Notes under the pieces: generated by a model
What the model was told of the DNA's origin: nothing
Seen by the model: only the letters and a program-made list of their open reading frames with translations
Databases searched by the model: none
Assembly: GCA_002633005.1 (NCBI GenBank)
Contig: NMRA01000020.1
Location: 621,522-685,521 of the forward strand
Direction: 5' to 3'
Source: Phoronis australis
Lineage: Eukaryota; Animalia; Phoronida
DNA length: 64,000 nt
Translations under genes and position numbers: made by a program
Shown: piece by piece, positions 9,511 through 28,750 of the stretch
Layout of the letters: each line of letters opens with the position of its first letter
Numbering within the stretch: position 1 is the first letter of the stretch

Positions 9511-9682
9511 CCCTTCAGCCAAGGCGCGTGCCCAACGGCCCTGGAGAGATGGGCAGGGCAGTGGTGATCCCGCCAGACAAGAAGGCGTATTCTCAAGAGC
9601 AATTTAAGATCAACCAGTTCAACCTTGTAGCCAGTGAGATGATGTCACTGAACAGAAGCCTGCCGGACTACAGAATGGAGCA
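9511..9682 (+). CDS. GALNT1: GalNAc-T exon E2 (GPGEMGRAV...[24 protein letters not shown])
   Basis: ttacag acceptor, CA|GTGAGT donor; typical GPGEMG and NQFN..S..R.LPD.R motifs of GALNT1/13. Confidence 0.95.
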
Positions 9683-9833
9683 GTGAGTACAGCCGCTTAG
9701 ACTATAACATGCACATAGTGTCTGATTACATGGCAGATTCTCTCATCTTCTGTCTAAAAAATTTCCGTATATGTTCATCAATCAGTCCGCAGGTGAAGTA
9801 GGTGCGTATGATGCGTAGTCAGTGTCACGCATA

Positions 9834-11266
9834 CCGTATTCGCCGTAGTAACCGCCCATGCCCCTATAAGCGCCCCCCACGCGTTTTCAGACTTTGCTGA
9901 AATAAGCGCCCAGTCCATGAACGTGTACATGCGAACAATGACGTACCTTCAGTCCTAAAACTCGGCTACAGTAACGTCTTCAATTTATCAACAAAAAAAA
10001 TTTTCTACGGGTCTTCTAGACCACCAATGGCACTGCTACATTTGTATTTAGCCGTGACTATACACTTCAAAGTAACACAGCGCTTCAAAAAGAACGCAAC
10101 AGCGTTGCTACTTTCGCGACGACTGTGTCCCACTATGGTCTGACCTTTCAGTAGACACATCGACTGTTTAAATAACTCGGTGTTGAATGCACGTGGCCAG
10201 AAAGCGCGCGCTACATATATGAACCTAGCTGTCATCAAAGACATTAGTCGGGAACTATCCATTCATGAAACGGGTAGCATAGCATCCGTAAGAAATGAAT
10301 ATTGGCCCTAATTTCCGACAATTTCTAATACTATAAAACATGTTTGCGTTATTTTTTAAAGGGATTGTTTGATTAACCATAATTGATGTTTTTAAACCGA
10401 ATATCCGATAAAATGACAACTGACAGTGAATGCTTGCACACCCTTACACCGAAAAATAACTGTCAGATAGTTACGTACGCATCCAGCTACACGGCGACTA
10501 ATATGGGCGGCATAATATGGGCCTTACCGAAACAAATGTCGAACGTTTTTAGCACGAGACTGGCAAGTGCTGAATGAAACACGCTCTGGTTTAGGCTTAC
10601 TGCTTGTGCAAATTTCTTTAGACGCAATGCACATCTAGCTCGTTAGATCGCGTGGCTCTGGCCAAAAGACGGTCTCTGCTTTGGCAAATGAACTCTGGTT
10701 ACACGCACGCGCTCGCTTACTCGCAGACGAACTTCAAAACAAACGTCACGTGACAACAACATGTGTGTTCGTCCAGACATTTTTCTCGCCATGTTGCCGA
10801 TCATACATGTAGATGGCACGATGTTGCGCAGATTTGTACTTAAAACTGCCGTAAATCCAGACTCCACGGGAACTTAAAAAAAGTCTTAGGGACGCTATTT
10901 AGAAAACTTAATGAGGATTTCAGGTAATTTGCTTGAGTCGAACCTATTTTTATTGAAGCATTGAAGTCGCCATATCGAAGACGGCAATTTTGAGGCAGTC
11001 ATTCGGCGAGTTTTCGCCCTGGGATTTCAGCACAATTTTCTGTAAAATGATCGTAATTTAGCAGCAAAGTTTGATAACAATGCACCACAGTTTTGTTGGA
11101 AGTCTTTCATAGATTACAGATACGTCACAGAACGTAAATTTGATGAATCTTAGCTTCCGATTTCACCCGTTTCGGAGACCGGGTTTCAACCGCCTTGGGT
11201 TATAATAAGCGCCCCCCTGAACAAAACTTTTCTAAACGCCCTGGGCAGTTATTACGGCGAATACGG
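9834..11266. mobile_element. Non-autonomous Tc1/mariner/pogo-type DNA transposon (1433 bp)
   Basis: 25-bp TIRs CCGTATTCGCCGTA(G/A)TAAC(C/T)GCCCA, 23/25 identical, with TA on both flanks. CpG-rich interior; no transposase ORF. Confidence 0.9.
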
Positions 11267-12319
11267 TAAACGATGTGCAGCAGTGGCCGCATGGTATGCA
11301 GCAGTTGTTGCATGGTGTGCAAGACTTAAGTTAGTGCTGCATTGTTCACTGAGACTGACTTCCATCTTAATGGATAATTTTTGCCATGCCTGGACACTGT
11401 GCACAGTGTATGTGTTTAATTTTCACAGCTTTCTTTATGTGCACTTGCACATAGTCTCAGTGTGGCTATTTTGGAGGCGTATAATTAGTCATGTGACATG
11501 TCAACTGATTATGTGAAACTAGGTCTGGTTCCGTAGATTAGGGTAGAGGGCAGCACAGTGTACCACGTATAAATTGAGTACACAACGTTTAGCAAAATCA
11601 TGCGCGGCTAGCACTACGTAGTGAGACGGCTACATTCAAATGAACGCTATTTGTAGTTTGGGTTTGTGGTAATTGCACGATTCGTTTGTTAGAATGACAG
11701 ACATGCACATTTATTTTGCTGCTCAAATTTGCTAGTAGCATGAGCCATTTCAGTCGCCATCTTGTCGTGTATTTACTATGGGCCGAGTTTGTTGCTGGTT
11801 TTTTCAAGAATTTTTGTTGGCATGTGAATGGAATTTGTTGAAAACTTTTTTGTGTTTATTTAGTCATGAGGAGAGAGTCAGCTGGAAATAGTTGCTTTGA
11901 AATTTCACCAATATAAGATGAGACTTTGTTCACTTTTTTGAAAACAACTTCATTTTGTACTAAGTCTATGTCTTGAGACCTTTACTGGAATCCATATTCA
12001 GCATAATGTTAAAGTGTGCTTGGCTTTTTGGTGTTAAGAAAGGCTTACACTAATCTGAGAGGTATTTGAAGGTGCAATATATGAGGAGATATCGGACTTG
12101 AGGGGACTATTTAATTGTATGGATGGGAATATTTGGGCCTTGAGAATTTCTTGTGATGTTTAAGTGTTTTTCTAAGGGGAATGAAGTCGATACTTGGTCC
12201 CAAAAGTGAGGCCTTGAGGGCCCTGATATGTGCTGTCACCAGTATTTCTCTTAAAAGGGGAATAGTTGTTGGTAGATGTGTTATAAGTTTCAGACTCACA
12301 TTTGGACTTCCATTTTCAG

Positions 12320-12489
12320 GTGTAAGTCCAAAGAGTATAACGTTGAAGAGCTTCCCACAACCAGTGTTGTCATTGTGTTCCATAATGAGGCATGGACTAC
12401 GCTACTTCGCACTGTTTGGAGCATTATCACCCGATCACCACGCCACCTGTTGAAGGAGATTATTCTCGTGGATGATGCTAGTGAACGAG
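12320..12489 (+). CDS. GALNT1: GalNAc-T exon E3 ([22 protein letters not shown]...EIILVDDAS)
   Basis: ttttcag acceptor, G|GTAGGT donor; GT-A Rossmann motif; phase 2->1 consistent. Confidence 0.97.
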
Positions 12490-13023
12490 GTAGGTGACTG
12501 ATGGTGCTTCCACATTGGTGTAGATGACTGGAGTCCCTTAATTGGTGTAAAACTCAGTCTATTCATTCAGAAGAATGTTTAACTTTTCTCATGTGGATTT
12601 TAGTATACCTTAAAGTAATTAAAGTTTTCAAAAGGGACACAAGTAAACAGATGAGTCGGGTGGTTATAAGGGTCACGAAGGGTTGTCCAGGACCAGTTGT
12701 CATTTCTTAACCAAATTAAATGGTCCATACTAAAGATTAGCACTATTTTTTGTATGTAAAAAGGGTGATATGGAGACTGAACTGATTTGTGGCTGATGCT
12801 GGAGTCCTATGCATTTAAAGTCGAACAATAGGTCTGGAAATTGACTTGGAATTTAGTAATTTGATGCAGTTACACAGTTTTGTGTATGTCTTTTTGATGG
12901 ATTTGTCATGCCTTGGGAGATAAAGTGTAATGTTTTTGTACACAAATAAAGTGTAATATGATTGTGTAGTCGAAATTTGCTTCGTCACAACTGAACTCAT
13001 TGTCACGAACAGCGCCAATTATA

Positions 13024-13425
13024 AGTGAACCATGACATTGTGCTAGCTCCACCTATACGTGAACCATAACATGCTAGCACCATCTTTTGGTGAATCATAA
13101 CATGCTATTTGCCATCAATAGGTGAACCATGATGTTGTGGTAACAGCATCAGCAGGTGAACCATAACATCATGTTATCGCCATGTCATATGTGAACCATG
13201 TTATGCTAGCGCCATCTATATTTGAACCATAAACTTATACAACCGCCACCTGTAGGTGAACCATACCATTATGTTAGCACCATCTTTTGGTGAACAACAA
13301 CGTTATGCTGGCACTGTCTATAGGTGAACCATAATGTTATGCTAGCTCTATTTACATGTGAACCCCAACATTATGCCAGCACCATGTATAGGTGAACCAC
13401 AACATTATACTGGCACCATCTATAG
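13024..13425. repeat. Degenerate ~31-33 bp tandem repeat (GGTGAACCATAACATTATGCTAGCACCATCTATA-like), ~12 copies
   Basis: GTGAACCA recurs with ~32 bp period and highly diverged units; ends ~35 bp before the E4 acceptor. Confidence 0.85.
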
Positions 13426-13459
13426 CAGAACTCTTCAGGTATGTTTCATTTGTTTGTAG

Positions 13460-13564
13460 ATTTCCTGGGCAAGAGACTAGAGCAGTACGTGGCCACTCTG
13501 CCCGTATCAGTCAAGGTGATAAGGATGGGCAAAAGGAGTGGATTAATCAGGGCCAGGTTGACAG
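13460..13564 (+). CDS. GALNT1: GalNAc-T exon E4 (DFLGKRLEQY...RSGLIRARL)
   Basis: tttgtag acceptor, G|GTAAGT donor; conserved RxGLIRARL; phase 1->1. Confidence 0.96.
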
Positions 13565-13979
13565 GTAAGTGGTTTAATGACCTATGGTCAGGGGCTGACA
13601 TGACCACAAAGTCATAAGAATAGACAGGCAGTCTATTGGTTTTAGTTTATAGTTCTGAGCATTTGCTAATAAGTTCTGTTCTCACCGGAATAATGGCATT
13701 AACTGATAGCATAGTTCTAGGTTTGGAAAAGCTTAAATTCTTAACATATTATAATGAATGGTAGACAGTAAATGTTTTAGATAGTTGGATACAGAATTGA
13801 GAACTTGATTCTGTGAGTATATGAAATCTTGTCAATATTTCTCAGACCCATAATGGTACATGTTCAAGTAGCGTCTGTTGTTGCATAATGTGAAGTCTTT
13901 ATGTGCATTTGCCGTACGTTGTAAAGTCCGGATACACATTTGCCGTATTGTAAAATTATTTTGTACATTTGTTGTGTAG

Positions 13980-14082
13980 GTGCTGAGGCTACAAAGGGCA
14001 ACGTGATCACATTCCTAGATGCCCACTGTGAATGCACAGAGGGCTGGTTAGAACCACTACTCTATGAAATCTACAAGGACAG
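13980..14082 (+). CDS. GALNT1: GalNAc-T exon E5 with DxH metal-binding motif ([19 protein letters not shown])
   Basis: gtgtag acceptor, AG|GTAAAT donor; [15 protein letters not shown] signature; phase 1->2. Confidence 0.97.
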
Positions 14083-14234
14083 GTAAATTATCTGTTGGCT
14101 GGTGAAATGTCTTCTCATCATTATGTTTAAATTTGTTGTTGTACCAACTGATTAGAATGTGATCAAAGATCAGAAACTCAAATGTGTGAATCGATAATCA
14201 TCAAATCAGTGCTCATTCTGTAATATGTTTTCAG

Positions 14235-14405
14235 GACAAATGTGGTTTGTCCAATCATCGATGTGATCAGCGATGAGACATTTGAATACATCGCAGGGTC
14301 AGACATGACGTGGGGAGGCTTCAACTGGAAGCTCAACTTCAGGTGGTACCCTGTTCCACAGCGGGAACTGACCCGCAGAAACAATGACCGCAGTCTGCCT
14401 CTCAG
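14235..14405 (+). CDS. GALNT1: GalNAc-T exon E6 ([16 protein letters not shown]...[13 protein letters not shown])
   Basis: ttttcag acceptor, AG|GTGTGT donor; conserved GALNT1-type sequence; phase 2->2. Confidence 0.97.
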
Positions 14406-14888
14406 GTGTGTATACGTGCCTCTCAGGTGTGTTTATGTGTGTTTTAGTGTATTTTGTGATGTCGTGTGCACTTTGGATTTGTTGTTTTCAAAAAAATGAC
14501 AAAATTGTAGTGAAATTATTTTGTTTTGTCTAGCCAGTGCAAACATTCTGAAGAATTGGATTTGGGCTTGAATTTGTTTTTGCGTCATTAAGGACATATT
14601 TCAAACAGGTTCGGGGATGGGCCGCGCAAAAAGAACATTCTTTAGTTTACTCTCAACTGTTAAGCTACTGGAAGCTTTTTAATAACATTTTGGTCATGTC
14701 AGAAATTTACTCCCTGGGTATAATCCTCTGGCACTGCCTTCACCTCACTACCAGATGGTAGTTCTCAGTGGCATGTCTTAAAATTTTTATTGGCCAACGC
14801 AGAAATTATTTAACTGTATTATTCTGCTGTAACAGTGAAGAAGTCTGTGTTTGATGTTTCTGTTAGCATCATTTGTTTTTTGTTGTAG

Positions 14889-15006
14889 GTCACCAACCAT
14901 GGCTGGTGGTCTTTTTGCCATAGACAGGAGTTACTTCTATGAGATCGGATCCTATGACCCAGGCATGGATATTTGGGGTGGCGAGAACTTAGAAATGTCC
15001 TTCAGG
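14889..15006 (+). CDS. GALNT1: GalNAc-T exon E7, Gal/GalNAc-T motif (PTMAGGLF...[14 protein letters not shown])
   Basis: ttgtag acceptor, AGG|GTGCGT donor; WGGENLE motif; phase 2->0. Confidence 0.97.
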
Positions 15007-15425
15007 GTGCGTCATCTTTTGTAGTAAAGTTTTAGCCCCACGCATGTGTGGTTTTCTAGGCAGAAACATGCCACTTATCATAATGGAAGTAACTGTATTA
15101 TGCTGCTGATATAGTTTTCATCCAAATGTTTCGTGCAAGGCAGAATTGGACACTTTATGTTAAGTAATTTGTTGAAATCGGTTTGCTACATGGAATTAAA
15201 GTTTGAACGTTCACGTGCCGGTTTCAAATCAACGTTCTGTTAGGCTCAAGCTCTAAATGCCTAAGGATTGTAGTCTTGGTGTCTTGGTGTTTTTCACTGC
15301 GTAATAATTTTTGCTGTCTTGGTTTGGCTTTATGCTGTTACTACAGACACTAAATGTGATTTTTACGAAATCTCGCATCTAAACTGACTGAAGTTTGGAT
15401 AGAATGAAAAAATTTGGACTTTCAT

Positions 15426-16856
15426 TTTTATGCGCCCACATATTATATGTGGACGCATTATGCCGTCATCTCTGTCCGTCCGTCCGGGCGGCGTCCGGCA
15501 TCCGCTGCTCTATCTCCAAAACCCTTTGACATACGTTCATGAAATTTGTTCCATTCATGAATGGGACGGCATGTGCGAACTTTCGGACGGATGCGACTAC
15601 CGGTGTGCCCCCTAGTGGAATTTGGTATGTAGGCACGTATTAGTGAGATGATGCTATCCTGCCGTTTTCAGATGGATTCGACATAGTTTGCGTCACCTAG
15701 TGGCCATTTTTAGTGTTTTCGAGTCTGTTTTTGTGCGTCCACCCCTCTATCAACCAAACCGCTCAAAGGATGATTGTGAAAATTGGCATGTATATGCTTA
15801 CTATGTAGAGGACGGTTGACGATGATTTTCCGACGATTTCGACTACTGTNNNNNNNNNNNNNNNNNNNNNNNNNNNNNNNNNNNNNNNNNNNNNNNNNNN
15901 NNNNNNNNNNNNNNNNNNNNNNNNNNNNNNNNNNNNNNNNNNNNNNNNNNNNNNNNNNNNNNNNNNNNNNNNNNNNNNNNNNNNNNNNNNNNNNNNNNNN
16001 NNNNNNNNNNNNNNNNNNNNNNNNNNNNNNNNNNNNNNNNNNNNNNNNNNNNNNNNNNNNNNNNNNNNNNNNNNNNNNNNNNNNNNNNNNNNNNNNNNNN
16101 NNNNNNNNNNNNNNNNNNNNNNNNNNNNNNNNNNNNNNNNNNNNNNNNNNNNNNNNNNNNNNNNNNNNNNNNNNNNNNNNNNNNNNNNNNNNNNNNNNNN
16201 NNNNNNNNNNNNNNNNNNNNNNNNNNNNNNNNNNNNNNNNNNNNNNNNNNNNNNNNNNNNNNNNNNNNNNNNNNNNNNNNNNNNNNNNNNNNNNNNNNNN
16301 NNNNNNNNNNNNNNNNNNNNNNNNNNNNNNNNNNNNNNNNNNNNNNNNNNNNNNNNNNNNNNNNNNNNNNNNNNNNNNNNNNNNNNNNNNNNNNNNNNNN
16401 NNNNNNNNNNNNNNNNNNNNNNNNNNNNNNNNNNNNNNNNNNNNNNNNNNNNNNNNNNNNNNNNNNNNNNNNNNNNNNNNNNNNNNNNNNNNNNNNNNNN
16501 NNNNNNNNNNNNNNNNNNNNNNNNNNNNNNNNNNNNNNNNNNNNNNNNNNNNNNNNNNNNNNNNNNNNNNNNNNNNNNNNNNNNNNNNNNNNNNNNNNNN
16601 NNNNNNNNNNNNNNNNNNNNNNNNNNNNNNNNNNNNNNNNNNNNNNNNNNNNNNNNNNNNNNNNNNNNNNNNNNNNNNNNNNNNNNNNNNNNNNNNNNNN
16701 NNNNNNNNNNNNNNNNNNNNNNNNNNNNNNNNNNNNNNNNNNNNNNNNNNNNNNNNNNNNNNNNNNNNNNNNNNNNNNNNNNNNNNNNNNNNNNNNNNNN
16801 NNNNNNNNNNNNGGTGCAATTGTGGGCGCATTTCAACGCTCTGCATTGCTCTTGTT
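15426..16856 (+). mobile_element. Helentron-associated/DINE-like element spanning the assembly gap
   Basis: Subterminal inverted repeats ATGCGCCCACA (15430-15440) and TGTGGGCGCAT (16821-16831), GTCC microsatellite near the 5' end, 3' mini-hairpin, T-rich insertion site. Confidence 0.75.
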
Positions 16857-16952
16857 ACGTTTAAGTTTATTTATTCTTTCCTTTGATTTGGACGTCTATT
16901 GTTTCTCTCCTGTTGTTCTATTGTCTGTCATCTCTGGATGTCTCCAAACCAG

Positions 16953-17133
16953 ATCTGGATGTGTGGTGGCCAGGTGCTTATTGTCACGTGCTCCCATGTA
17001 GGACACGTGTTCCGCAAGGCGACGCCGTACACTTTCCCCGGCGGCACAGGGCGCATCATCAACCACAACAATGCCAGGCTATCGGAAGTCTGGCTGGATC
17101 AGTGGAAACATTTCTATTACAAAATCAATCCAG
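16953..17133 (+). CDS. GALNT1: GalNAc-T alternative exon E8a (IWMCGG...[20 protein letters not shown]...FYYKINP)
   Basis: ccag acceptor, CAG|GTTAGA donor, 181 nt, phase 0->1; closest to the GALNT1/13 loop sequence [13 protein letters not shown]. Confidence 0.95.
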
Positions 17134-17572
17134 GTTAGATAATGCGATAAAGCATCGCATGCGAATGGTCATGTTTTAGACTTGCCTGCATGGCTATACT
17201 TGACTTGTATCTTCAACCGCCTGACTGTTCTCTGACCTCAGGTAGTGCGGTGTTCACCTAAGACTTGGGGTTGAGGTTACAATGTTATTTGCCGTTGCAT
17301 GGTAGTTGTGTCTCCGAGGGCAGTACCTATTGTGGTGTTCATTTCCAGGAGTTAAATGTAATCAAAATAAACAGTTCGTATTTCATATTCATTTGAAGTA
17401 AGACTTCACGTGAAGTATTTTGCAAAGCGTACAGTGTCATTTGGATTTCATTACTTCCTCGATGCACCACACGTAATGTCCTCAGGAAACATAGTGCATT
17501 ATTTTGCCTCATTGTGCGGCTGTTCTAAACACGCATTTCTCTCCATCATTCATTCATTTCTGCACACAACAG

Positions 17573-17753
17573 GTGTGGATGTGCGGGGGCTCTGTCTTGA
17601 TCGCCACGTGCTCCCGCGTCGGACACGTCTTCCGAAAGGTCAGCCCATACTCGTGGCCAGGTGGCGTTAGTCGCATCCTCAACCACAACACCCAACGCAC
17701 GGCCGAGGTCTGGATGGACAAATACAAGAACTTCTATTACAAAATCAGCCCAG
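17573..17753 (+). CDS. GALNT1: GalNAc-T alternative exon E8b (VWMCGG...[20 protein letters not shown]...FYYKISP)
   Basis: acag acceptor, CAG|GTTCGA donor; same length (181 nt) and phase as E8a; 40/60 aa identical; no stops. Confidence 0.92.
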
Positions 17754-20451
17754 GTTCGACCTTTCACTCTTGACCTCTGCCTCTGAGGTCAGACCTTTGA
17801 CTCAAAGTGTCCTCTCTGGTTAAAGTTGCTGTGTCATTTCAGTGGGCAACACCACATTCACTTGCTGTTGCTTAATAAGAAAAACCTTCTTTTTAAACGT
17901 ATCAAAATAACCTGTTAATAAAAAACTTCATGAGATTCGATTGTGAGTTGTTTCACTAGCCTCACCCAGTGTATATAATGACTGACTATCTCACTGATGC
18001 AGTGGGTCTGATCATGTCGATTAATACTGACTGCATGTATAACATCACCATGACTGTAATTAATGGAAGTCATGCCATCTATTTCTTAAATGCCTGAGGA
18101 ACCTTCTATTAATATGATGATCATAATGACCATTAGTTAAGAAATGTCCACTGGATGACATGACAACTTCATGCTTGAATGTGTTTTGCTGTCGCCGTCT
18201 GCTTTCAGCTACTAACTTTCATCGTTTCTTCTAATGTTTGCGTTTGTTCTGTTTTCTAGGTCTGTGCGGCTTATTAACATTTATTAACCAATTGTTGTTG
18301 TGTCTGTCTATGAGTTGGCTGCTCACCAATTTGTCAGCATGCATCATATAGTTAGCTGATCACATGCTACTTGGCATGCTTGTGCTTCAGCTTGAGTTCA
18401 AGGGTTACTCGTGCAGCTGATCTCTGTGTGTTTGCATAATATGTGTGTGCATGTGTGTGGTAGAATGTGTGTCTGGTTGTTGAAAATTGTTTCACTGTCT
18501 TAACACTGTCACTGAACAGCACCAGCCGTGCGCAGTAGAGGGGAATGAGAACGCAGTGTTAGATTTCTTTTGGCTGTGTTTAATTGTTAGTCACCACAGT
18601 CATGTTCTGCCTTTATTTTGCATCGTTTTATCCAAAATCTTGTTAACTTTGAAATCATTCTTTACATAGTTTTCTTAATATGAAGTCTTAATATTAAGTG
18701 CCTTTCCTTTAAGAGCCAATCAACACCCGTCCATCAATCGATGACATTTCCATGGAAACAAAGCCACCACTGTCTAGACTTTACATTGTTCATCTTTGCC
18801 TGTACCATTAATTGAGTTAAGATGGTTGCATTCTGTAACCAATCAAATTAATTGCATTTTGTTTGGTGCATTGTCAGTTGACTTTCAAGGTTATTACTTG
18901 TTAACCCTTTGAAGCAAACGTTGCTGTAATCCAAATACAACAAACAGCATCATGTCTATGAAAGCTTAATATGCTATTTTGCACCACTGGTACATAATGG
19001 ATATCAGTGTCATGAGAGACAAGCTTCGTGCTTGCCTGTGTTAACCATCCACTGTTTTTGTGCTAAAATCTTGTTTAGTTTTTCTCCTTTTGTTTTGACT
19101 TTTAATTTGCTTGCATTGATGGTTAGTAAACACTGGAGAACTAGACTAAGTATCGATTATTTGTGGTCCTCAGTGAAATACTATGGTCACTTGGGATCTA
19201 TTAGTGTTTTCACTGTTACGGCTGGTGGGGTTTTTGTTATCCAGTTGAGTTTCAGATTCGCACTGTTTGTTGTGTGTGTAATGTAGTTTGCGTTCACTTG
19301 TTTGGTGTTGTTTACTGGCTGTTCTGAGTATTTGTTTTTAGTCTGGACTGCTGTGGCTGTGATGGTAGTTAGATGTTAATCTTTTTGAATTGTGATTGTC
19401 GCTTAAATAACTGGTCTCAAAATTCTGCAGGCCAGGATACTAAGTGATTTCTAAAATTAAAAAGAAATGGAAGGTCACTAATGATTGATAGAATGCAGTA
19501 CAGTTATGGGGGGGGGGTCTGCCCTGTCAAAATGCCCTGGGTTGTTGTTGATAATCTCTGAATGATGTGTTTTGGGATTGACATATAACTATGGCTGAAG
19601 TCTAGTGTCGTGTTATATCATGGTACGGAAAGTTTAAGGTGCGTTTTGTGTGGTTAACAAATCAGGTGTTTGTTTTAGACAGTGACTTCGAGGATAGGTC
19701 CCTGTAACGCCTGCTAATGCTGAGTGATTGGTGTTTATAAACTCTCGTGGAGGCTATTTTATTTTTGTTTAAAACGAATCACCTACAGTGTAATAAGGGT
19801 GTTTTCACTTAGTCAAAATGTCACCAGTCCCACATAATCAGTCTCCATTGCTTCTTGAGAGTCTCTCATTGGCTGACCAGTGAGGTGTGTTTTCTGGAAA
19901 GCTCAATTTAAGTTAAATCGGACTTTCGGGTGCGTGTCCTAACTATTCTGTTTGTAATCACATAAGGCTGTGTTTCGATTCTGTTTCATATATTATTTTT
20001 CAAAACTGATATCAAGATTTTCAGGGTTTTCCCTCTCCTTTGTGGCACTAGGACATGTAAGTCGACCAAATTGGGATAGCAGAGGCACATTTCATGTCAG
20101 ATCTTGCATTCAATTTTTAAAATGAGCCAAACATAATCTTATATAACCTCACCCCAGATGTGTTCTTACATGGCCTTGCACCATACATGGTCTTACAATT
20201 CCACTGGGTTTGATGAGCTATCTTCCCTCAGATCACCGTTTTGTATTTTTTAAATCTAAAAGCTGAAATGACAATCCTAAGTACGTTGATGATTTCGCAT
20301 TTTATAAAATTTCTCAAAATAACTTTTGCTGCATTACATTGAATGGTTTTGTGAAATATAATCCAGAACAGGGTCGCATTGATTTTAGTAGTCTGTTAGA
20401 AAGTTTCGACTATCCTAGCGCTTAGTATGATTTATCCCGTGTTATCGCCAG

Positions 20452-20591
20452 GCGTACGGCAGACAGATTATGGGGATGTGTCCGAGCGCAAAGCTCTGAG
20501 AGAAAAGCTCAAATGCAAGAGTTTCCATTGGTACTTGGAGAACATCTACCCCGAGTCACAGATGCCTCTGGATTACTACTCTTTGGGAACA
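20452..20591 (+). CDS. GALNT1: GalNAc-T exon E9 ([30 protein letters not shown])
   Basis: gccag acceptor, A|GTGAGT donor; conserved end of catalytic domain and linker; phase 1->0. Confidence 0.97.
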
Positions 20592-20741
20592 GTGAGTGAA
20601 ATTATCGTCTGCGATGAATTAGTCATGCTCTAGTCCTGAATTAAATGGTGTTCATGAAACTGCGCGTAAGTGGAGTTGACATTACTATCTACAGACTGTC
20701 TGCATTGAAGCTTGGATGCCTTTTTGAAGTTCTCTGAGGAA

Positions 20742-20799
20742 TGTGTGTGTGTGTGCGTGCATGCGTGTGTTTGTGTGTGTGTGCGTGCATGCGTGTGTG
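20742..20799. repeat. Imperfect (TG)n microsatellite
   Basis: Directly visible. Confidence 0.9.
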
Positions 20800-21546
20800 A
20801 ACCAGACATGAAGTCAGTTTTATGAAGAGTGACCAAAGTCTTTAGACAGAACTTTGGTCTTATACTCCCTATTCACAATTGCTGAATAAGGATAATTATG
20901 AGAGCATCACGGTTTACAAATAATACATTCAGCAACTAGCAGTTTTCAATTGTGTAACTACATTCTTGGAGATTTTGCGTTTTTTTTGCGCAAATGACGT
21001 TTAATAGTTTTTCAGAAATAGTTCTGCGTAGCACAAAATCAAATTTCGGACTTAAGTCTCATCTAATTCTTCATGAGACAGACCCCTGTTATAGTTTGGA
21101 CTCTGTAGTTAAATTTGTATTACACGTTTCCATAACGTTTTTGCCTTGAGAATGACCTGAGTTGTGTCTTTAACGCACATGTGAGATTCCTCTGATTGAC
21201 CATAGGAAACCCATTTTCAATTGGCTCATGCTTTCATATAAACTGACAAAATGTGCTTGTTCGTAAGGGGTTTGTTGATGTTATGTTCAGCAGCTGTGTT
21301 GACTCAAAATCACTTGTCATGTAGAACTATTTACAGTCCTCTGTTACACAGTGAGCATATGTTTGAAGCAGATGGATCTTGTGGGACCCTGATCACATGT
21401 AGAAAATTTAAAATTTGAAATCTTGCAACTTGTTGACAGTTCAGTATCACTGCATCATTGCTAGTCCATTGAGTATGTATTCAGCTGCTGATGTAGCATT
21501 TTAGCTTTGTTGGTGTATACCGTAACCCCTGTGTGATGACTTTCAG

Positions 21547-21645
21547 ATAAAGAACAAACAAACTGGAAAGTGCCTTGACAGTATGGGTCGAAAGAGTGGG
21601 GAGAAACTGGGAATGGTCAACTGCCACGGAATGGGGGGGAACCAG
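21547..21645 (+). CDS. GALNT1: GalNAc-T exon E10, ricin-B lectin alpha repeat ([25 protein letters not shown])
   Basis: ttttcag acceptor, CAG|GTATTG donor; CLD...CHGxGGNQ motif; 99 nt, phase 0-0. Confidence 0.96.
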
Positions 21646-22307
21646 GTATTGGGATTGTCAGTCGTGTCTGCAGACAAACTTGGAAATTATTATAATCAGT
21701 ATTCAGACTGTCCGATTGTCAGGCTCACTTGGCAGATAGATTTTAGAGAACAATTAAATTTCGAAAATTGCCAAATGTGAAATTTACATGGAATTTACTA
21801 TGACAATATAGAATGGAAAGGATTTTGTATAAAGGTCCTGTGTGATTAACTTTGTTAAGTCTTCGCCTATTTAGTGCTTGCTGTGACTGACTAGTCTGAT
21901 TTTAGTTTGATAAATTTCTCCACAAAAATGTAATGGTTTGAAATGCACAGCTCTCATTATACAGAACCCAGTGAAAGTTTGCTCGTTGCAAGGTTATCGG
22001 CCATTGAAATGATATTTTAACAATTGCCTTGTGTGAAATAGGCGACGAATTGCCATTAAAGTTTTTAGTGATTATTTGAAGATAAAGAAGGCAATAATGT
22101 TTAATCCCATGTCATCCCCTGTCTCATTTACTCTTGAATGTATTGAGACCATAGTTTTGTGTGTTTTACTGTCTATTAACTTAAGTGTAAATAATGCATT
22201 TCAAGCCACGGCTAGTTGACTTGCTTGATCAGTGCTGAGAGCTGTGCTAGAATTGCTGTCATGTTGAGTCGTTCATTGTTTTTTGTACGTTTTTCTCCTG
22301 CTGCCAG

Positions 22308-22442
22308 ATTTTCTCGTACTCAAAGAAGAAGGCATTTCAGACAGATGACGTCTGCATTGATGTGTCGGCCGTCAACGGTCCCGTCAATCTGTTTCAGTGT
22401 CACGGGCTGGGGGGAAACCAGCATTGGGAATACAACCGGCAG
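22308..22442 (+). CDS. GALNT1: GalNAc-T alternative exon E11a, lectin beta repeat (IFSYSKKKAFQTDDVCIDVSAVNGPVNLFQCHGLGGNQHWEYNRQ)
   Basis: ctgccag acceptor, CAG|GTTTGT donor; 135 nt, phase 0-0; CxD..CH...NQxW motif. Confidence 0.94.
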
Positions 22443-23017
22443 GTTTGTCATGACGCATCACCTTGCATGGTTGATGTCGACGTGTGAAGGATGTAGGGAA
22501 TCATGGACAGTCTTGATGGCAGGAGGGCTGTTTCACACATTATCTGACTGTCCTTGTGTGATTTTGAAAATTGTCTTGGAGTTTTGCTTTCCCAGCATGA
22601 CTTCTGAGATCTTAAAAATGGTCTGTTGTATGAACCATTGAATTTTGTTTAAAGTTGCCAAATCCTTACTTTTTTAACCAATTTTGATTTTACGAATTGT
22701 CACAATTTTTGTTCTGTAAACATGCCTGTTACCAACAGCTAATAAATATCCATTGTATTAGTGCCACATGGACTATATTTCTCAGAATGCAAGGAACACA
22801 AACAGATACAGTATGAAACTGGGCCCCTGAACTGTTTATCATTGCACACAATATGCAAATATTCTCCCAGGTGTTTGTGTTTGTGTGTAACGGTTTTGAG
22901 ACTCCACCCTTCCCTCATCTCTCCTGTCCATGATTCGTCGCCATCGTTCACGCCCGGCCCCGTCATCTGTATCACTAACACGGCTCGTCGTTTCACCTTC
23001 GTATTTTTGCTCTTCAG

Positions 23018-23143
23018 ATTTTTTCTTATGTGGCCACCAAACAAATACAGGCCGACGACCTGTGCATAGGTGCACAGTACTACACCGCCATACTAATGTC
23101 TTGTCACACGGTGTCCGGCGGACAATGGCTTTATGATCGACAG
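23018..23143 (+). CDS. GALNT1: GalNAc-T alternative exon E11b, divergent lectin beta repeat (IFSYVATKQIQADDLCIGAQYYTAILMSCHTVSGGQWLYDRQ)
   Basis: Branch point CACTAAC at 22973-22979, tcttcag acceptor, CAG|GTAGTG donor; 126 nt, phase 0-0; shares IFSY, QxDDxCI, CH and WxYxRQ with E11a. Confidence 0.88.
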
Positions 23144-24514
23144 GTAGTGTTGACGCATCTCCTGGGAAGGGTTTGGGTATCTGGTCTGGAAAACGTTTTA
23201 ATGTCTGCCAGTTGCGCTGTTCACGCTTTTTCAATTTTTATGAATTTCGTGTTGAGTTTTGTTCGAAAGCTTTGAATTTTTTTCTCTGTTGAAGAACAAT
23301 GATACAGTTATTGGGAGCATGTTAATAAAGCATTTTGTTATTATTTAATAAACGATGGTCTACTGTGGCAGTCAAATAAGTAGATGTTTTAATTTTTTGA
23401 TACTTTAAAAAGGAATGACTTTATCCTAATGATATTTATTGCATAATTCTCCGTAGCACCGGAAAATTCAGGGATTTCATTTATGGCGCTGCTTCTGTAT
23501 TTCAAATGCATTGTGTGAGGGTTGTCAGTTTGTACTTACTAGGTGATATCACAGATTACTTGTTGATGTGTACACAATGTGAAGGAAAACTTGCGCACAC
23601 GAGAATTATAAGCAAACTCCACTACAACATGTCTTTGGGTGCAAGTGTAACAAAATAGCCATCATAGAAGAAATAAACAGTGAAAGTGAGCCTCTAAAGG
23701 CATCAATATTTGATTAGCAATTTTTGGCGGAAGATTTTCGAGTCATGCCCCATCCAGTCGTTTGGTGTCGGATCTCACCACCTGAAATGCAAATCATGAA
23801 ACAAGTTATACACCCACAAGTTATCTATGTTGTCACTAGATGTTTATGAACTGACAAGTGTCCCACAATGCATTTGGGTAACAACAGCACCGCCACAGGT
23901 GAGATTGCCTGAATTGAGTTGTTTGACCAGGTCTCAAATTGTTGTTTGCTTCTTATTTGTCAAATAGTCGGTGTGGAGTGCTTGGTGCCCTGCTTCTTTA
24001 GTTTCTTCTGAATCGTCAAAACATGATTCATGTTAGCCGAAATCCATTTTTTATCAAGTAATACGGTTGATGAAAGGTTTGTTCAGGTCATGTAGGACTG
24101 TGGCTGATCTAAATGAAACTTTTAGACACTTCCCTTATGCGCTACTCTCCTAAATGCTGTTAGGGATTGGTGTTGAAATTGTCCACCTTTGCATGAGGGC
24201 TTTCAAAAACAAGAATGTCTAATAAAATTTGATCATGCTATTAATACTTTCAAAGTATCATGTTTTTGCTAAAAACTTGGTCATGTGACCTAATGAATGA
24301 CAGATTTGTAAAAAGTCAAAAATCAAATTCTACAGGCTTACTATGTTGGAAAGATAAACTTAGAATCTATAGGTTTGTAGATATTTGGCTAAGTATACTA
24401 AATATAAAAATAATAATTGCAGGTGGTCTGGTATACGTTGTACCAGACACCTCAGGTTGGCCCATTGCACTGATCACCTGGAACCATTTTTATGCTTTGT
24501 TAATATATAATAGT

Positions 24515-24635
24515 TAAAATGGAGCCGAGGAGTTAGAGACCTGACTCGAGGGTCTAGCAGTGTACCCCAGTGAGTCTTGCACCCACGACTTTCAGTTAAA
24601 GAAGTAGGCACTTATCCTATAAAGCCACTCTGCCT
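24515..24635 (-). mobile_element. Degenerate tRNA-derived SINE head
   Basis: Minus strand reads AGTGGCTTTATAGGATAAG...GTCGTGGGTGCAAGACTCACT, with A-box/B-box-like spacing but no intact cloverleaf. Confidence 0.35.
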
Positions 24636-24677
24636 CTTGTCCTACAAAACCTTATATCAACCGCAAAATCTTATCAC

Positions 24678-24826
24678 CAGGGGTGGATCCAGGATTTTTA
24701 GTTAGGGGGGGCATGGCAGAGTATTAGTCAGGATTTTGCCTGTCAGACATTCGCACCCCCCATCTGACAAATGTAAACTGGGAGAATTTTAGGGGGGCCA
24801 TGGCCCCCCTCTAAATCCGCCACTGA
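24678..24826. mobile_element. Short MITE family (CAGGGG(T/C)GGATCCAG...TAAATCCGCCACTG); other copies at 54042-54215 and 55630-55685
   Basis: Three recognisable copies in both orientations with GC-rich terminal inverted motifs. Confidence 0.7.
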
Positions 24827-26239
24827 TCACATCAACCTGATCCTGTTCTTAACTTGAGATTGTTGTTTTAGCTGGTGGAATAGATGATGGACCGTTTTGT
24901 AGTGTGGGGTACTTGAATGTTTTTGTGGCTAGGATTCCCGTTTCCCTGTCGCTCTCCTGTGTGTTGGGATGAGCTTGTCTATGTATGCTCAATCCACCTC
25001 TATAGAAAATTACGTGGTGGGAAGTTTCTTAGTAGTTTTTTTAGCTAATGCAATGTAGTTGAAGGCTGCAGTCATCCAGCACAGTTGACTCCTGCAGCTT
25101 TGCTTGTTAAAGTTTACTAATTGTTTATTGTGGTCAGTTGTTGGACAGGAGCTTGTTTGGGATGCTGAGTCCTGCTGTCAGACCAATTATAAAATGAGGG
25201 ACTAAGTGTTGAAAGTTTTTAAATTTAATTTTGTACTTTTTGGTTCAATAATTTGATTTTTTATTTTATTTGGTACATTTTATACTTTTCTAATTAATTG
25301 GAGTTTTTGTTGTAATTATTATGTTAATTTTCAGCTTGTTGTTATTCTGATCATGATGCCATTTTCCAATCCACCGGTGACTTAAATCATGGACACATCT
25401 TGAAAATTAGCCTATTGTCTCTGCATGATTCCCTGTGCATGGAAAGAAATGTCCCATTCCTACAGATTAGTGACTATTGCTTGACCTTTTCTTGCCCATT
25501 TGGAACACGTAATACAGTAACTGTGAATGACCACTATTTCTAGACGTTTCTGTGTAGGGTTAGTTTACCAGTGAATAGATCCAGATTATTTAGCTTAAGG
25601 CTGCATTCCGTCTTGGTTTAGCTGTCGATGTTGAATTCTTAACCAAAGCACTTTGTGGTTTTAAAACATTGCCGTGCTCATCTGAGTTATTGACCAATAA
25701 ATCTCTGAAGCATTTTTTGAGGCACTGATGGTTTCGATGTTCTTGTTGGTAATGGATGTAGAATCGTGTTTTGGCAAGAAGTATGAGACTGAATTTATGA
25801 CAGTTAAATGTTCCACAGGGTGTAATGCAGCTTTAAAATAGGAAAGAGTTACATCACCTGGAGGAAAGCCAATGAGTTTGGTGTTGGTTTTTGACTAGCA
25901 TACAAATTCCTCGTTTTCTTTAAGACATTTTGCCACTGTTAATTACTGTTCGCCTCGCCCTAATAACTGTGTAGTATACTTAGTGAAGCGACATTAACGG
26001 CTTAGTGAAAAGTCCTCGTCTTGTTTCTGCATTTTCTGGCATTGACTAAAACAAAATGGCCATCTCAGTGTTTAAAAATAGCGTTGCACTCCGGTTTCGT
26101 GTGTCAGTGCTGTACCCCAGTACAAAAACGTTAATTACCGATATTCTACCTCCATTTGCCCCTCTATGTACCGAATCGCTAAACGAATCGTGAAAATTGG
26201 GAAATGTGTTCTTACTGACTGTAGCAAGACTGACATTCA

Positions 26240-26652
26240 TTGATTTTCAGATGTTTCTGACTTCTGTGGTGCCCCCTACTGTCATTTTGTTATGCACCTG
26301 CGACTGTATCTCCTAAACCCCTTGTAGGATTTTTGTGAAATTTGACAAAATGCATCTCTATGAACGTGACAACGTATGACCACTTCTCTCGAATGAATGT
26401 GACTACCACTGTGCCTCCTGGTGATAGTTTTATTTTTTTACAGTTGCCTTTACAACTTCAAAGTTCATAGACAGATTTTCATGAAATTTAACAAACGCAA
26501 TAGATTTCCATAACAAATATGACGGTGCCTTTCCATTTTCAGACGAGCTCTATGTATTGTGCGCCATCCAGTGACCATTTTTTGTAATAAACACCTGGGT
26601 TGCATTTGTTTTGCAGTCGTGAATGCATTTCAACGCTTAAGATTGCTCTTCT
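26240..26652 (+). mobile_element. 3' part of a HINE/DINE-like copy
   Basis: Ends GCATTTCAACGCTTAAGATTGCTCTT, matching the family 3' end at 16828-16853. Confidence 0.5.
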
Positions 26653-28000
26653 GCTAGAAACAAAATTTTGAAAGGAACAGGTTACTGATAATAAGTGGAG
26701 GTGCAAATGTCATTGGAGAATTGAATTATTAGTTGAGATAACACCAACATTGACTTTCTTCTCGAAGTGCTGTTCCCTATGGTTACAAAAGACTTTGAGA
26801 CTACCTGTGTCAGCATCTTGTCTATAATGTCTGGCCCCACTTTTGATCTGTGGACAAAATTTGCTAGATATTGGCTGATCAGTGAAGTAAGACCATAAAA
26901 CGTGAATGGCTTTAAAGACTAATATAATCATATAATGAGTAATTTGATAATTGTACAGTGTGCAAAAACTTTCTTAGTGGACATATTGCTCAGTGCAAAA
27001 CTAAGAGAGAAAATAATTTATTTTTTCAAAGAAGCAACTGGATTTCCAGTATCATTACTGAGAAATGCTATGATCGAAAAGGTCGAAAATTATCTAAAAA
27101 GTGGCGCATGTCAGCTGAGCAAGTGACAGAAAATTTTTTTGGCTAAATAGTTTTTCATAAGGTTTCCTAATTTCAACCACTAGATGTTGTTCAATTTAAA
27201 AAAAAAAATGTCGCTATACCTGCGTTCCACCCACGAAGCAAAATTGTGACTTGGATCAGTTGCCGCTATGAAAAGGGTGTTGATTAGATCCTTACTGGTA
27301 TGACAAGCAATTTCTTAATTAGCAAAGAACTGACCAGATGATATTTGCTGAGACCATGCTCAGCACAATATGACACGTCGTGCCGAGCCAACCCATAGAG
27401 CCTGATGTCTAGCAGTCAAGAGACTGTCAAGTCTTTTGAAACGCTGGAATCATTTGCAAATTGATTAGCAATGGGAACAATTTGGCTTTACAAGTTGGCT
27501 TGTCGCGGTGTGCTATTTTATGCTCCAACCTTTGTTTCATGGAAACCCATAAATATCACTTCTTATCTGAGTACGGAGTTGTGACAGAATGCATGTTTAA
27601 ATCACAGGATCACTTATGGCAACATGCCTGCATTCCAGCCCAAAAAAAAAACAGCTTGATTTAGACCATCAGAATGGAAAGACTTGATCGGTGTTTATTG
27701 CTCGAGACCAGCCTTGATAATTTCGCTTGGAGGGTGGAACACAGATTTACGGCTGCTTTAACTGCTAGCTGTTAAGTGAAGCTGATGCACTGTGCTTTTA
27801 CCAAGAGTTTGTGAAAACATATACGACAAATGCATCGGGATGATTTCAGTTGTGCAGCTTTACCCATGGCAAAATAGTGTCGGTTTTTGACAGTCCACCA
27901 ACCATGATTTTACTGACAGTGGTGAACATCTATTGACCATGTTCTCCCTGTTGTTAGAACTCATGTTTCTGATGTCTGACCCATATTCATCTTTTTGCAG

Positions 28001-28079
28001 ACTCTTACAATAATGCACACTAACTCCAAGCAGTGTCTCGACACACCCAAACCAAATGAACCTAATGTGCCATCTCTTG
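28001..28079 (+). CDS. GALNT1: GalNAc-T exon E12, lectin gamma repeat (TLTIMHTNSKQCLDTPKPNEPNVPSL)
   Basis: tttttgcag acceptor, G|GTGAGT donor; H.NS.QCLD motif; phase 0->1. Confidence 0.93.
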
Positions 28080-28685
28080 GTGAGTTTTAAAACTACTAGG
28101 TCACTGAATACTATGCCAGTGTCCATATCATGTATTGAATTTTTTACACTGCCAGGACTTAATAGTTGATGTGTTCTATGCTTATCATAAATGTCTTTTA
28201 AAACAAAAAATGCGGAGTCCCAGATGAACAAATTGGTAAATGATTGAAGGGTCATAAGTTGGTTGAACTGCTGTCATTGAGTTTAAAGTGAAGGTGTGTA
28301 CAGCATATCCAAGGGTCACAGCTAGTTTATTGGAACACAGTGCATTTCATTGTCAAGTCTTGTTCCTATTTAATTCTGCACTTGTTTTAATAATTGAGGC
28401 ACTGATTAAAAATGAGGCAAGTTTTCTTTAAATTTTTTTCGTTGTTTTTTGTGGTGGTGGGACATTTTTGAGATGTTGAATTGTTTCAAATGTTTTTCAT
28501 TTTTGTTAAACTGCAGAGTCATTAGCCCCAAAAGTATTAAGTCTTATTTTAAGCTACAGTGACAGCTGTTATTGTCATGATGTTAAAATTGAAACACCCG
28601 GCTCACGTTTGTGTATGAAATTAAAGTATTCTCATCTTCTGTTGACTTTTAACTGTTTTTCACTCATCCAAGACATTTTTTCCAG

Positions 28686-28750
28686 GACCCTGCAATGGAA
28701 GCCCATCACAGCAGTGGATCTTGTCCGACATGGACTGGAACAAGATGTAG
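28686..28750 (+). CDS. GALNT1: GalNAc-T terminal coding exon E13 (GPCNGSPSQQWILSDMDWNKM*)
   Basis: tttttccag acceptor; phase matches E12; C.GS.SQQW motif; TAG at 28748-28750. Confidence 0.92.

Follow-up and report, generated by a model that had tools for sequence, protein, structure and literature searches.

Mutually exclusive exons in a Phoronis GalNAc-transferase gene and a possible downstream-docking RNA switch that would bias their choice

The window considered here is a stretch of 64,000 nucleotides of the Phoronis australis genome (contig NMRA01000020.1). Its + strand carries a gene for a polypeptide GalNAc-transferase of the GALNT1/13 (pgant5, gly-5) type, with Glycos_transf_2 and ricin-type lectin domains, whose exons span approximately 9513 to 28747, as shown by tblastn with homologs; GalNAc-T1 is the closest GalNAc-transferase type in the homology comparison. 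Between the constitutive exons 7 and 9 there are two tandem exons, 8a and 8b (Table 1), which have the same length and the same phases and share 68% DNA identity. Exon 8a shows 89% identity to a protein of Capitella and 87% to one of Lingula, and exon 8b is 85% identical to the Owenia and 82% identical to the Lamellibrachia sequence; b-type exons are found also in annelid, brachiopod and bryozoan proteins. Both types occur in tandem within one Lingula gene model, and the duplication is therefore old. A Pfam search with the 61-residue exons alone gave no match. Exon 8a can be aligned with GalNAc-T1 and, in GalNAc-T2, covers residues 342-399; these include R362, which belongs to the catalytic flexible loop (PMC6789641), and the sequence of this loop differs between 8a and 8b. 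Because the loop folds over both UDP-GalNAc and the peptide (PMC6789641), the choice of exon could change which substrates are glycosylated.

The intron before 8a contains a very high-copy, transcribed interspersed repeat (at approximately 15440-15849 and 16813-16858) flanking an N gap (15850-16812). A third exon 8 inside this gap was considered and rejected; none is visible, nor does the listing, with its threshold of three reads, hold a further loose end before exon 9. At position 17695, a third codon position in 8b, the window has an A, and all RNA reads and both contig sets have a G; positions 17048 and 17617 vary among reads.

Table 1. Exons, pairing elements and candidate splicing signals around exons 8a and 8b.
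Feature	Position	Strand	Basis or remark
Exon 7, constitutive	14889..15006	+	tblastn with homologs; RNA joint 15006 -> 17573; donor GTGCGT
Exon 8a, a-type, 181 nt	16953..17133	+	18 RNA reads joined to exon 9
Exon 8b, b-type, 181 nt	17573..17753	+	17 RNA reads joined to exon 9
Exon 9, constitutive	20452..20591	+	RNA joints from 17133 and 17753
Three GCATG motifs, candidate Rbfox-type (17157; TGCATG at 17187 and 17296)	17157..17301	+	motif scan
Acceptor look-alike fused to donor look-alike, overlapping S1 (CTGAC, pyrimidines, CAG/GTAGTG)	17220..17247	+	
S1, upstream selector-like partner, TCTGACCTCAG	17231..17241	+	coordinate check; folds
Proposed local partner of S1, TGAGGTTA	17272..17279	+	no support in longer folds
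X, GAGGTC-bearing stretch within exon 8b	17701..17714	+	predicted to pair with whichever of S1/S2 is free
S2, local partner, forming an 8-bp hairpin with D	17770..17777	+	coordinate check; folds
D, shared docking-like site, CTGAGGTCAGA	17783..17793	+	position +30 of the intron after 8b

Both 8a and 8b are real exons; they are spliced in one at a time and are mutually exclusive. The RNA data are three stranded raw-read runs with the same species label, of which approximately 18-19% each was examined, and the listing holds joints with at least three reads. In the exon 8-9 region the only joints listed are 8a-9 (11, 2 and 5 reads in the three runs) and 8b-9 (2, 7 and 8 reads). In two of the runs the exon 7 sequence, with its 3' end, precedes 8a as a loose end in 9 and 4 reads and 8b in 3 and 5 reads. 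The listing for the three runs has no joint between 8a and 8b at the three-read threshold, which hides rarer joints, so that rare double inclusion could still occur. The 8a/8b ratio varies between the runs (chi-square P = 0.008). Another run (X3), labelled as DNA by guess, contains spliced contigs and has a depth of 146 on 8b and of 25 on 8a and its introns; it looks like an 8b-dominant RNA sample.

The 8a-8b intron (439 nt) is not too short to be spliced, which rules out steric hindrance as the source of the exclusivity. Each of the two exons has a length of 3n+1, and in a frame test of exons 7-10 inclusion of both leads to a stop at codon 132 of 239 and skipping of both to a stop at codon 55 of 119, with no stop when a single exon is included. 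Decay of frameshifted messages would then remove the double-exon products. As the double products stop early, pairing is not supported as the source of the exclusivity, and the possibility that decay masks double inclusion counts against the switch.

The introns following 8a and 8b contain elements that can pair with each other. It had been proposed from the sequence that S1 is the exact 11-nt reverse complement of D and that D can instead pair locally; the first is correct, with all coordinates, and the second is borne out in the folds, in which D is predicted to form a hairpin with TGACCTC at 17771-17777. This heptamer, which is common to S1 and S2, has just two copies on the + strand of the window, one after each exon. 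D is approximately 2.66 kb ahead of exon 9, and the cassette from 8a to D is shorter than 900 nt. Two mutually exclusive helices of similar energy are predicted: S1:D and S2:D use common nucleotides, and their probabilities trade off, being 0.12-0.79 for S1:D and 0.2-0.88 for S2:D in the six fold windows that hold both helices. The constrained ensembles of the two states have energies of -229.5 and -230.1 kcal/mol (a gap of 0.6 kcal/mol), and a comparable two-state site occurs in 1 of 40 shuffles. A version of the S1:D duplex lengthened to 18 bp (-26.7 kcal/mol when isolated) was discarded, as the probability of the extension is 0 in context. The additional local helix that had been suggested for S1 (17233-40 with 17272-79) does form in fragments of 71 and 181 nt, but its probability is approximately 0 in all seven longer folds containing it. 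When S2:D is formed, S1 is predicted to pair with X in exon 8b, which would enclose the 8b acceptor, and X is thus a predicted fourth pairing partner; it is not specific, because the same Glu-Val codons recur in 5 of 16 b-type rows. The 8b splice sites are predicted to be open to nearly the same extent in the two states (0.40/0.40 for the acceptor and 0.36/0.44 for the donor), so that folding alone would not make a clean switch.

By itself, the 11-nt S1/D match is ordinary. It is one of three exact 11-nt inverted repeats in 16813-20500, and a match of this length to any part of the downstream intron has P = 0.295 in shuffles and 0.29 among 841 window positions; with the partner limited to the first 100 nt, the values are 0.006 and 0.019. 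The best duplex energy (-26.1 kcal/mol) is borderline, with P = 0.067 (150 shuffles) and 0.043 (139 window positions). The triad, in which one site has an 11-nt distal match and also forms a local stem of 7 nt within 60 nt, is found in 30 of 3000 shuffles and at 69 of 3365 overlapping window positions (the true locus included), which corresponds to 1-2%; when limited post hoc to the first 100 nt it is found in 2 of 20000, and a looser 10+6 triad is common (366 of 3000), all of these tests having been devised after the motif was known. At the sensitivity tested, for which the 11-nt element itself is too short, the locus does not belong to a dispersed repeat: in DNA run X1 only two contigs cover 16875-20680 at 90%, the depth is flat, and no long self-match was found in the window. 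An Rfam search gave nothing of note, the one match (E 0.69) being a chance match.

For comparison, 80 related loci were collected in one metagenome scan. Two exon-8 copies are present in 20 of these, and 18 were tested, L008 and L011 being near copies of L007 and L005. The loci are distant, and all their introns are unalignable to the window. The pairing elements are not seen to be conserved: no related locus has an exact S1 or D, or a near match at the homologous place, and the 11+7 triad is present in none of the 18 two-exon loci, including L006 and L019, which have the same a/b pair. As the introns cannot be aligned and known switches can be clade-specific (approximately 80 million years for srp; PMC4691838), this absence is weak evidence against the switch and no refutation. 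The distal match alone reaches a shuffle P of at most 0.025 in 4 of the 18 loci (two of low complexity, one of 12 nt and one, in L005, of 14 nt), a warning that the shuffle P flatters or that there are other pairings. Among eight related two-exon loci of one clade, the same-locus duplexes (-22.1) and the cross-locus duplexes (-22.0) give no locus-specific signal. In a second sample of the same species the elements are unchanged, but the two samples are nearly identical throughout. Within the window, the introns after 8a and 8b resemble each other only in the 7-mer (P 0.1-0.65 for their first 150 nt); a long alignment between them, convincing by eye, was dismissed, as it is not significant when compared with controls.

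Some of the related loci have arrangements of their own. In L012 (2664-3390), and likewise in the equivalent region of L017, the middle intron has two nested 8-nt complements to the last one, accompanied by a local hairpin; the layout is that of the window, with P of approximately 0.45, the two loci being too alike to test. In L005, a 14-nt exact complement (intron positions 412 and 180; shuffle P 0.007) would loop out the second exon, and there is a 6-nt second partner near the donor. In the arthropod-type loci the a-like exon is paired with a different, upstream exon, and in a clade of eight loci (L015, L021, L025, L034, L038, L040, L047 and L073) the a-type exon is followed by a divergent exon-8 type of 190 nt, after which there are conserved GCATG-rich blocks.

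The donors of 8a (GTTAGA at 17134) and 8b (GTTCGA at 17754) are indeed non-consensus, as had been noted before. Among the related loci, 10 with two exons have donors that agree with GTAAGT at 2-4 of 6 positions, and in six of seven single-exon loci the agreement is at 5-6 of 6. The intron after 8a also contains the GCATG motifs of Table 1, GCATG being an Rbfox element (PMC11874969), and there is none in the 250 nt after 8b. Over 24 loci, 30 GCATG motifs are observed within 250 nt of the a-type exons, where 12.4 are expected; after the a-type exon of 14 arthropod-type loci there are 17 (5.4 expected), and after b-type exons of 11 loci there are none (2.5 expected). There is no clear excess after exon 7 (5 versus 7.9 expected, 24 loci), exon 9 (8 versus 5.3, 24 loci) or exon 6 (6 versus 4.1, 15 loci), some of the exon 6 and exon 9 control donors being loosely called. 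A divergent third exon type of one clade has 13 motifs (4.8 expected, 7 loci). The motif is present in 10 of 12 lineage clusters, three GALNT1-like loci without a visible second exon having been dropped. Throughout these counts cDNA-like and truncated loci are excluded, and many of the loci are related and hence not independent. As judged from these sequence comparisons, GCAUG after the a-type exon is a better conserved signal than the pairing elements, and its apparent conservation in two phyla, with annelid-like and arthropod-like loci, is a separate and firmer lead. In addition, 2-4 copies of the motif [A/T]CTAA[C/T], which we take to be of the QKI/How type, lie within 250 nt downstream of the first arthropod-type exon (the first exon-8 copy) in six of eight loci (L007, L012, L017, L018, L023 and L028).

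It is possible that these features together form a working downstream-docking switch, in which pairing is one layer that biases the choice between 8a and 8b. S1:D pairing would loop out 8b and favour 8a, the S2:D hairpin would leave 8b free, the weak donors would make both exons optional, and an Rbfox-type protein on GCAUG would promote 8a in some tissues. The pairing would be expected to alter splicing as a bias on the choice and not as the sole guard of exclusivity. Since D is close to the 8b donor and far from exon 9, such a switch would work by hiding 8b and not by drawing 8a near exon 9. The chances that this switch operates are judged to be about evenly balanced. The main rival is that the complementarity is due to chance, that weak donors and RNA-binding proteins (Rbfox-type, on GCAUG) make the choice and that frameshift decay enforces the exclusivity. 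This rival, which is possible but held to be rather doubtful, is favoured by the GCATG enrichment after a-type exons across the lineage clusters, by the early stops when both exons or neither are included, by the sample-dependent 8a/8b ratio and by the Rbfox control described for a mutually exclusive pair in C. elegans unc-32 (PMC3585155). The low frequency of the triad and the balanced energies of the two states argue against chance, the motif counts have the limits given above, and, since Rbfox and RNA structure can act jointly, as described in PMC12772994, the GCAUG motifs are also compatible with pairing.

Two narrower explanations concern single elements. S1 could be kept as a splice signal, either as a recursive site, by which exon 7 would skip 8a in two steps, or as a decoy that would absorb the 8a donor, masking by D being optional in both cases. 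As an acceptor, the look-alike that overlaps S1 equals the genuine ones of the gene in quality (CTGAC approximately 20 nt upstream, pyrimidines at 14 of 20 positions and no other AG within 40 nt); just three such acceptor-donor fusions occur on the + strand, one of them at the start of a coding exon of the same gene (12320), and GTAGTG also follows the predicted exon 23018-23143. No joint or loose end is listed in the RNA at 17241/17242, where the intron depth is only 0-2 reads, recursive sites are known mostly from long introns, and this explanation does not account for S2 and D; it is considered quite improbable. It could also be that the active structure is just the local S2:D hairpin next to the weak 8b donor and that the distal match is incidental. 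This hairpin has a probability of approximately 0.8 in the fold of 17573-17900 and would form before S1:D by proximity, but the distal match, with its 11 nt, exceeds it in both length and stability (-18.6 versus -12.7 kcal/mol for the isolated duplexes), and the hairpin-only explanation is the least probable of all. The original prediction did not include three features that compete with it, namely X, the GCAUG motifs after 8a and the look-alike. Its central claim, that the docking/selector logic of insect genes operates here, holds in part: the exclusive exons, the two-partner docking geometry, the near-equal energies and the weak donors agree with it, and the third helix, conservation and pairing as the source of exclusivity are not supported.

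A second, candidate tandem exon pair is present in the lectin domain of the same gene (22308-22442 and 23018-23143, + strand; 135 and 126 nt; 42% amino-acid identity), and the Lingula protein P0002 has a divergent variant at the lectin-domain exon. Both exon lengths are multiples of three, so that decay could not enforce any exclusivity of this pair. Right after the donors there is a 20-nt element with 16 of 20 positions identical (22451-22470 and 23151-23170, + strand; P 0.001-0.004 in shuffles and window controls over the first 40 nt), which was not found among the 80 related loci. Each copy is able to pair with a stretch within the first exon of this pair, and a search for a shared docking site gave no convincing candidate. 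A more far-reaching proposal would be that a four-element switch (S1, S2, D and the exon 8b stretch), together with Rbfox sites and masking a recursive site, selects the version of the flexible loop, that tissue-specific folding thereby sets the mucin-type targets and that the lectin-domain pair, with its own duplicated intron element, diversifies the enzyme further; this full combination is unlikely.

If the docking switch is real, the downstream-docking mechanism would extend beyond insects and mammals, and to a glycosyltransferase, and the short 8a-to-D cassette makes it easily testable. In the literature covered, with most subscription journals outside its scope, no RNA-structure control of GALNT exons and no annelid docking switch was found. 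For GALNT13/Pgant5/gly-5 a tandem exon substitution event is on record in vertebrates, arthropods and nematodes (PMC9741552); this is the same gene family, and the passage of that paper with the listing names neither the exon nor a mechanism. Lophotrochozoan Mhc clusters are described without pairing data in the account of PMC3912159.

The closest relatives of the proposed arrangement are the downstream-docking clusters described for insect 14-3-3zeta exon 5, Mhc, MRP1 and Dscam1 exons 4 and 9 (PMC4691838, PMC6071210), in which, as here, one site after the last variant complements an element after an upstream variant, thereby looping out the downstream variant, and in which the splice sites of the variants are weak. 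The layout corresponds to the right-docker variant of PMC6071210. In the insect cases described, the elements were found by conservation and tested by compensatory mutation, whereas here they come from the sequence and from folding, and D is far from the next constitutive exon. The competitor here is the arm of a local hairpin, 17 nt after the last donor, whereas in the earlier model the proximal exon is included when the docking site is unpaired (PMC4691838). In the model of partial stem-loop duplication (Ivanov and Pervouchine 2018, PMC6071210), an exon is duplicated together with one hairpin arm, which generates two like selectors and one docker. This is in agreement with the TGACCTC shared by S1 and S2, each of which follows an exon; unlike in that model, the duplication is very old and the two introns have no wider similarity, so that descent of S1 and S2 from one hairpin arm is not supported.

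The mammalian cases are similar in other respects. Exons 7a and 7b of human ATE1 are also a two-exon cluster in which three elements compete for one site, and there pairing hinders a 3' splice site, as described in PMC7797038; here S1 overlaps the acceptor look-alike. The competing helices of ATE1 act on the genuine exon acceptors, which they block (PMC7797038), whereas here all three elements follow donors. Exons 5a and 5b of SCN9A, as described in PMC12772994, combine duplicated exons, Rbfox sites and a pairing within the intron by which skipping of the second exon is promoted, as is proposed here for 8a and 8b.
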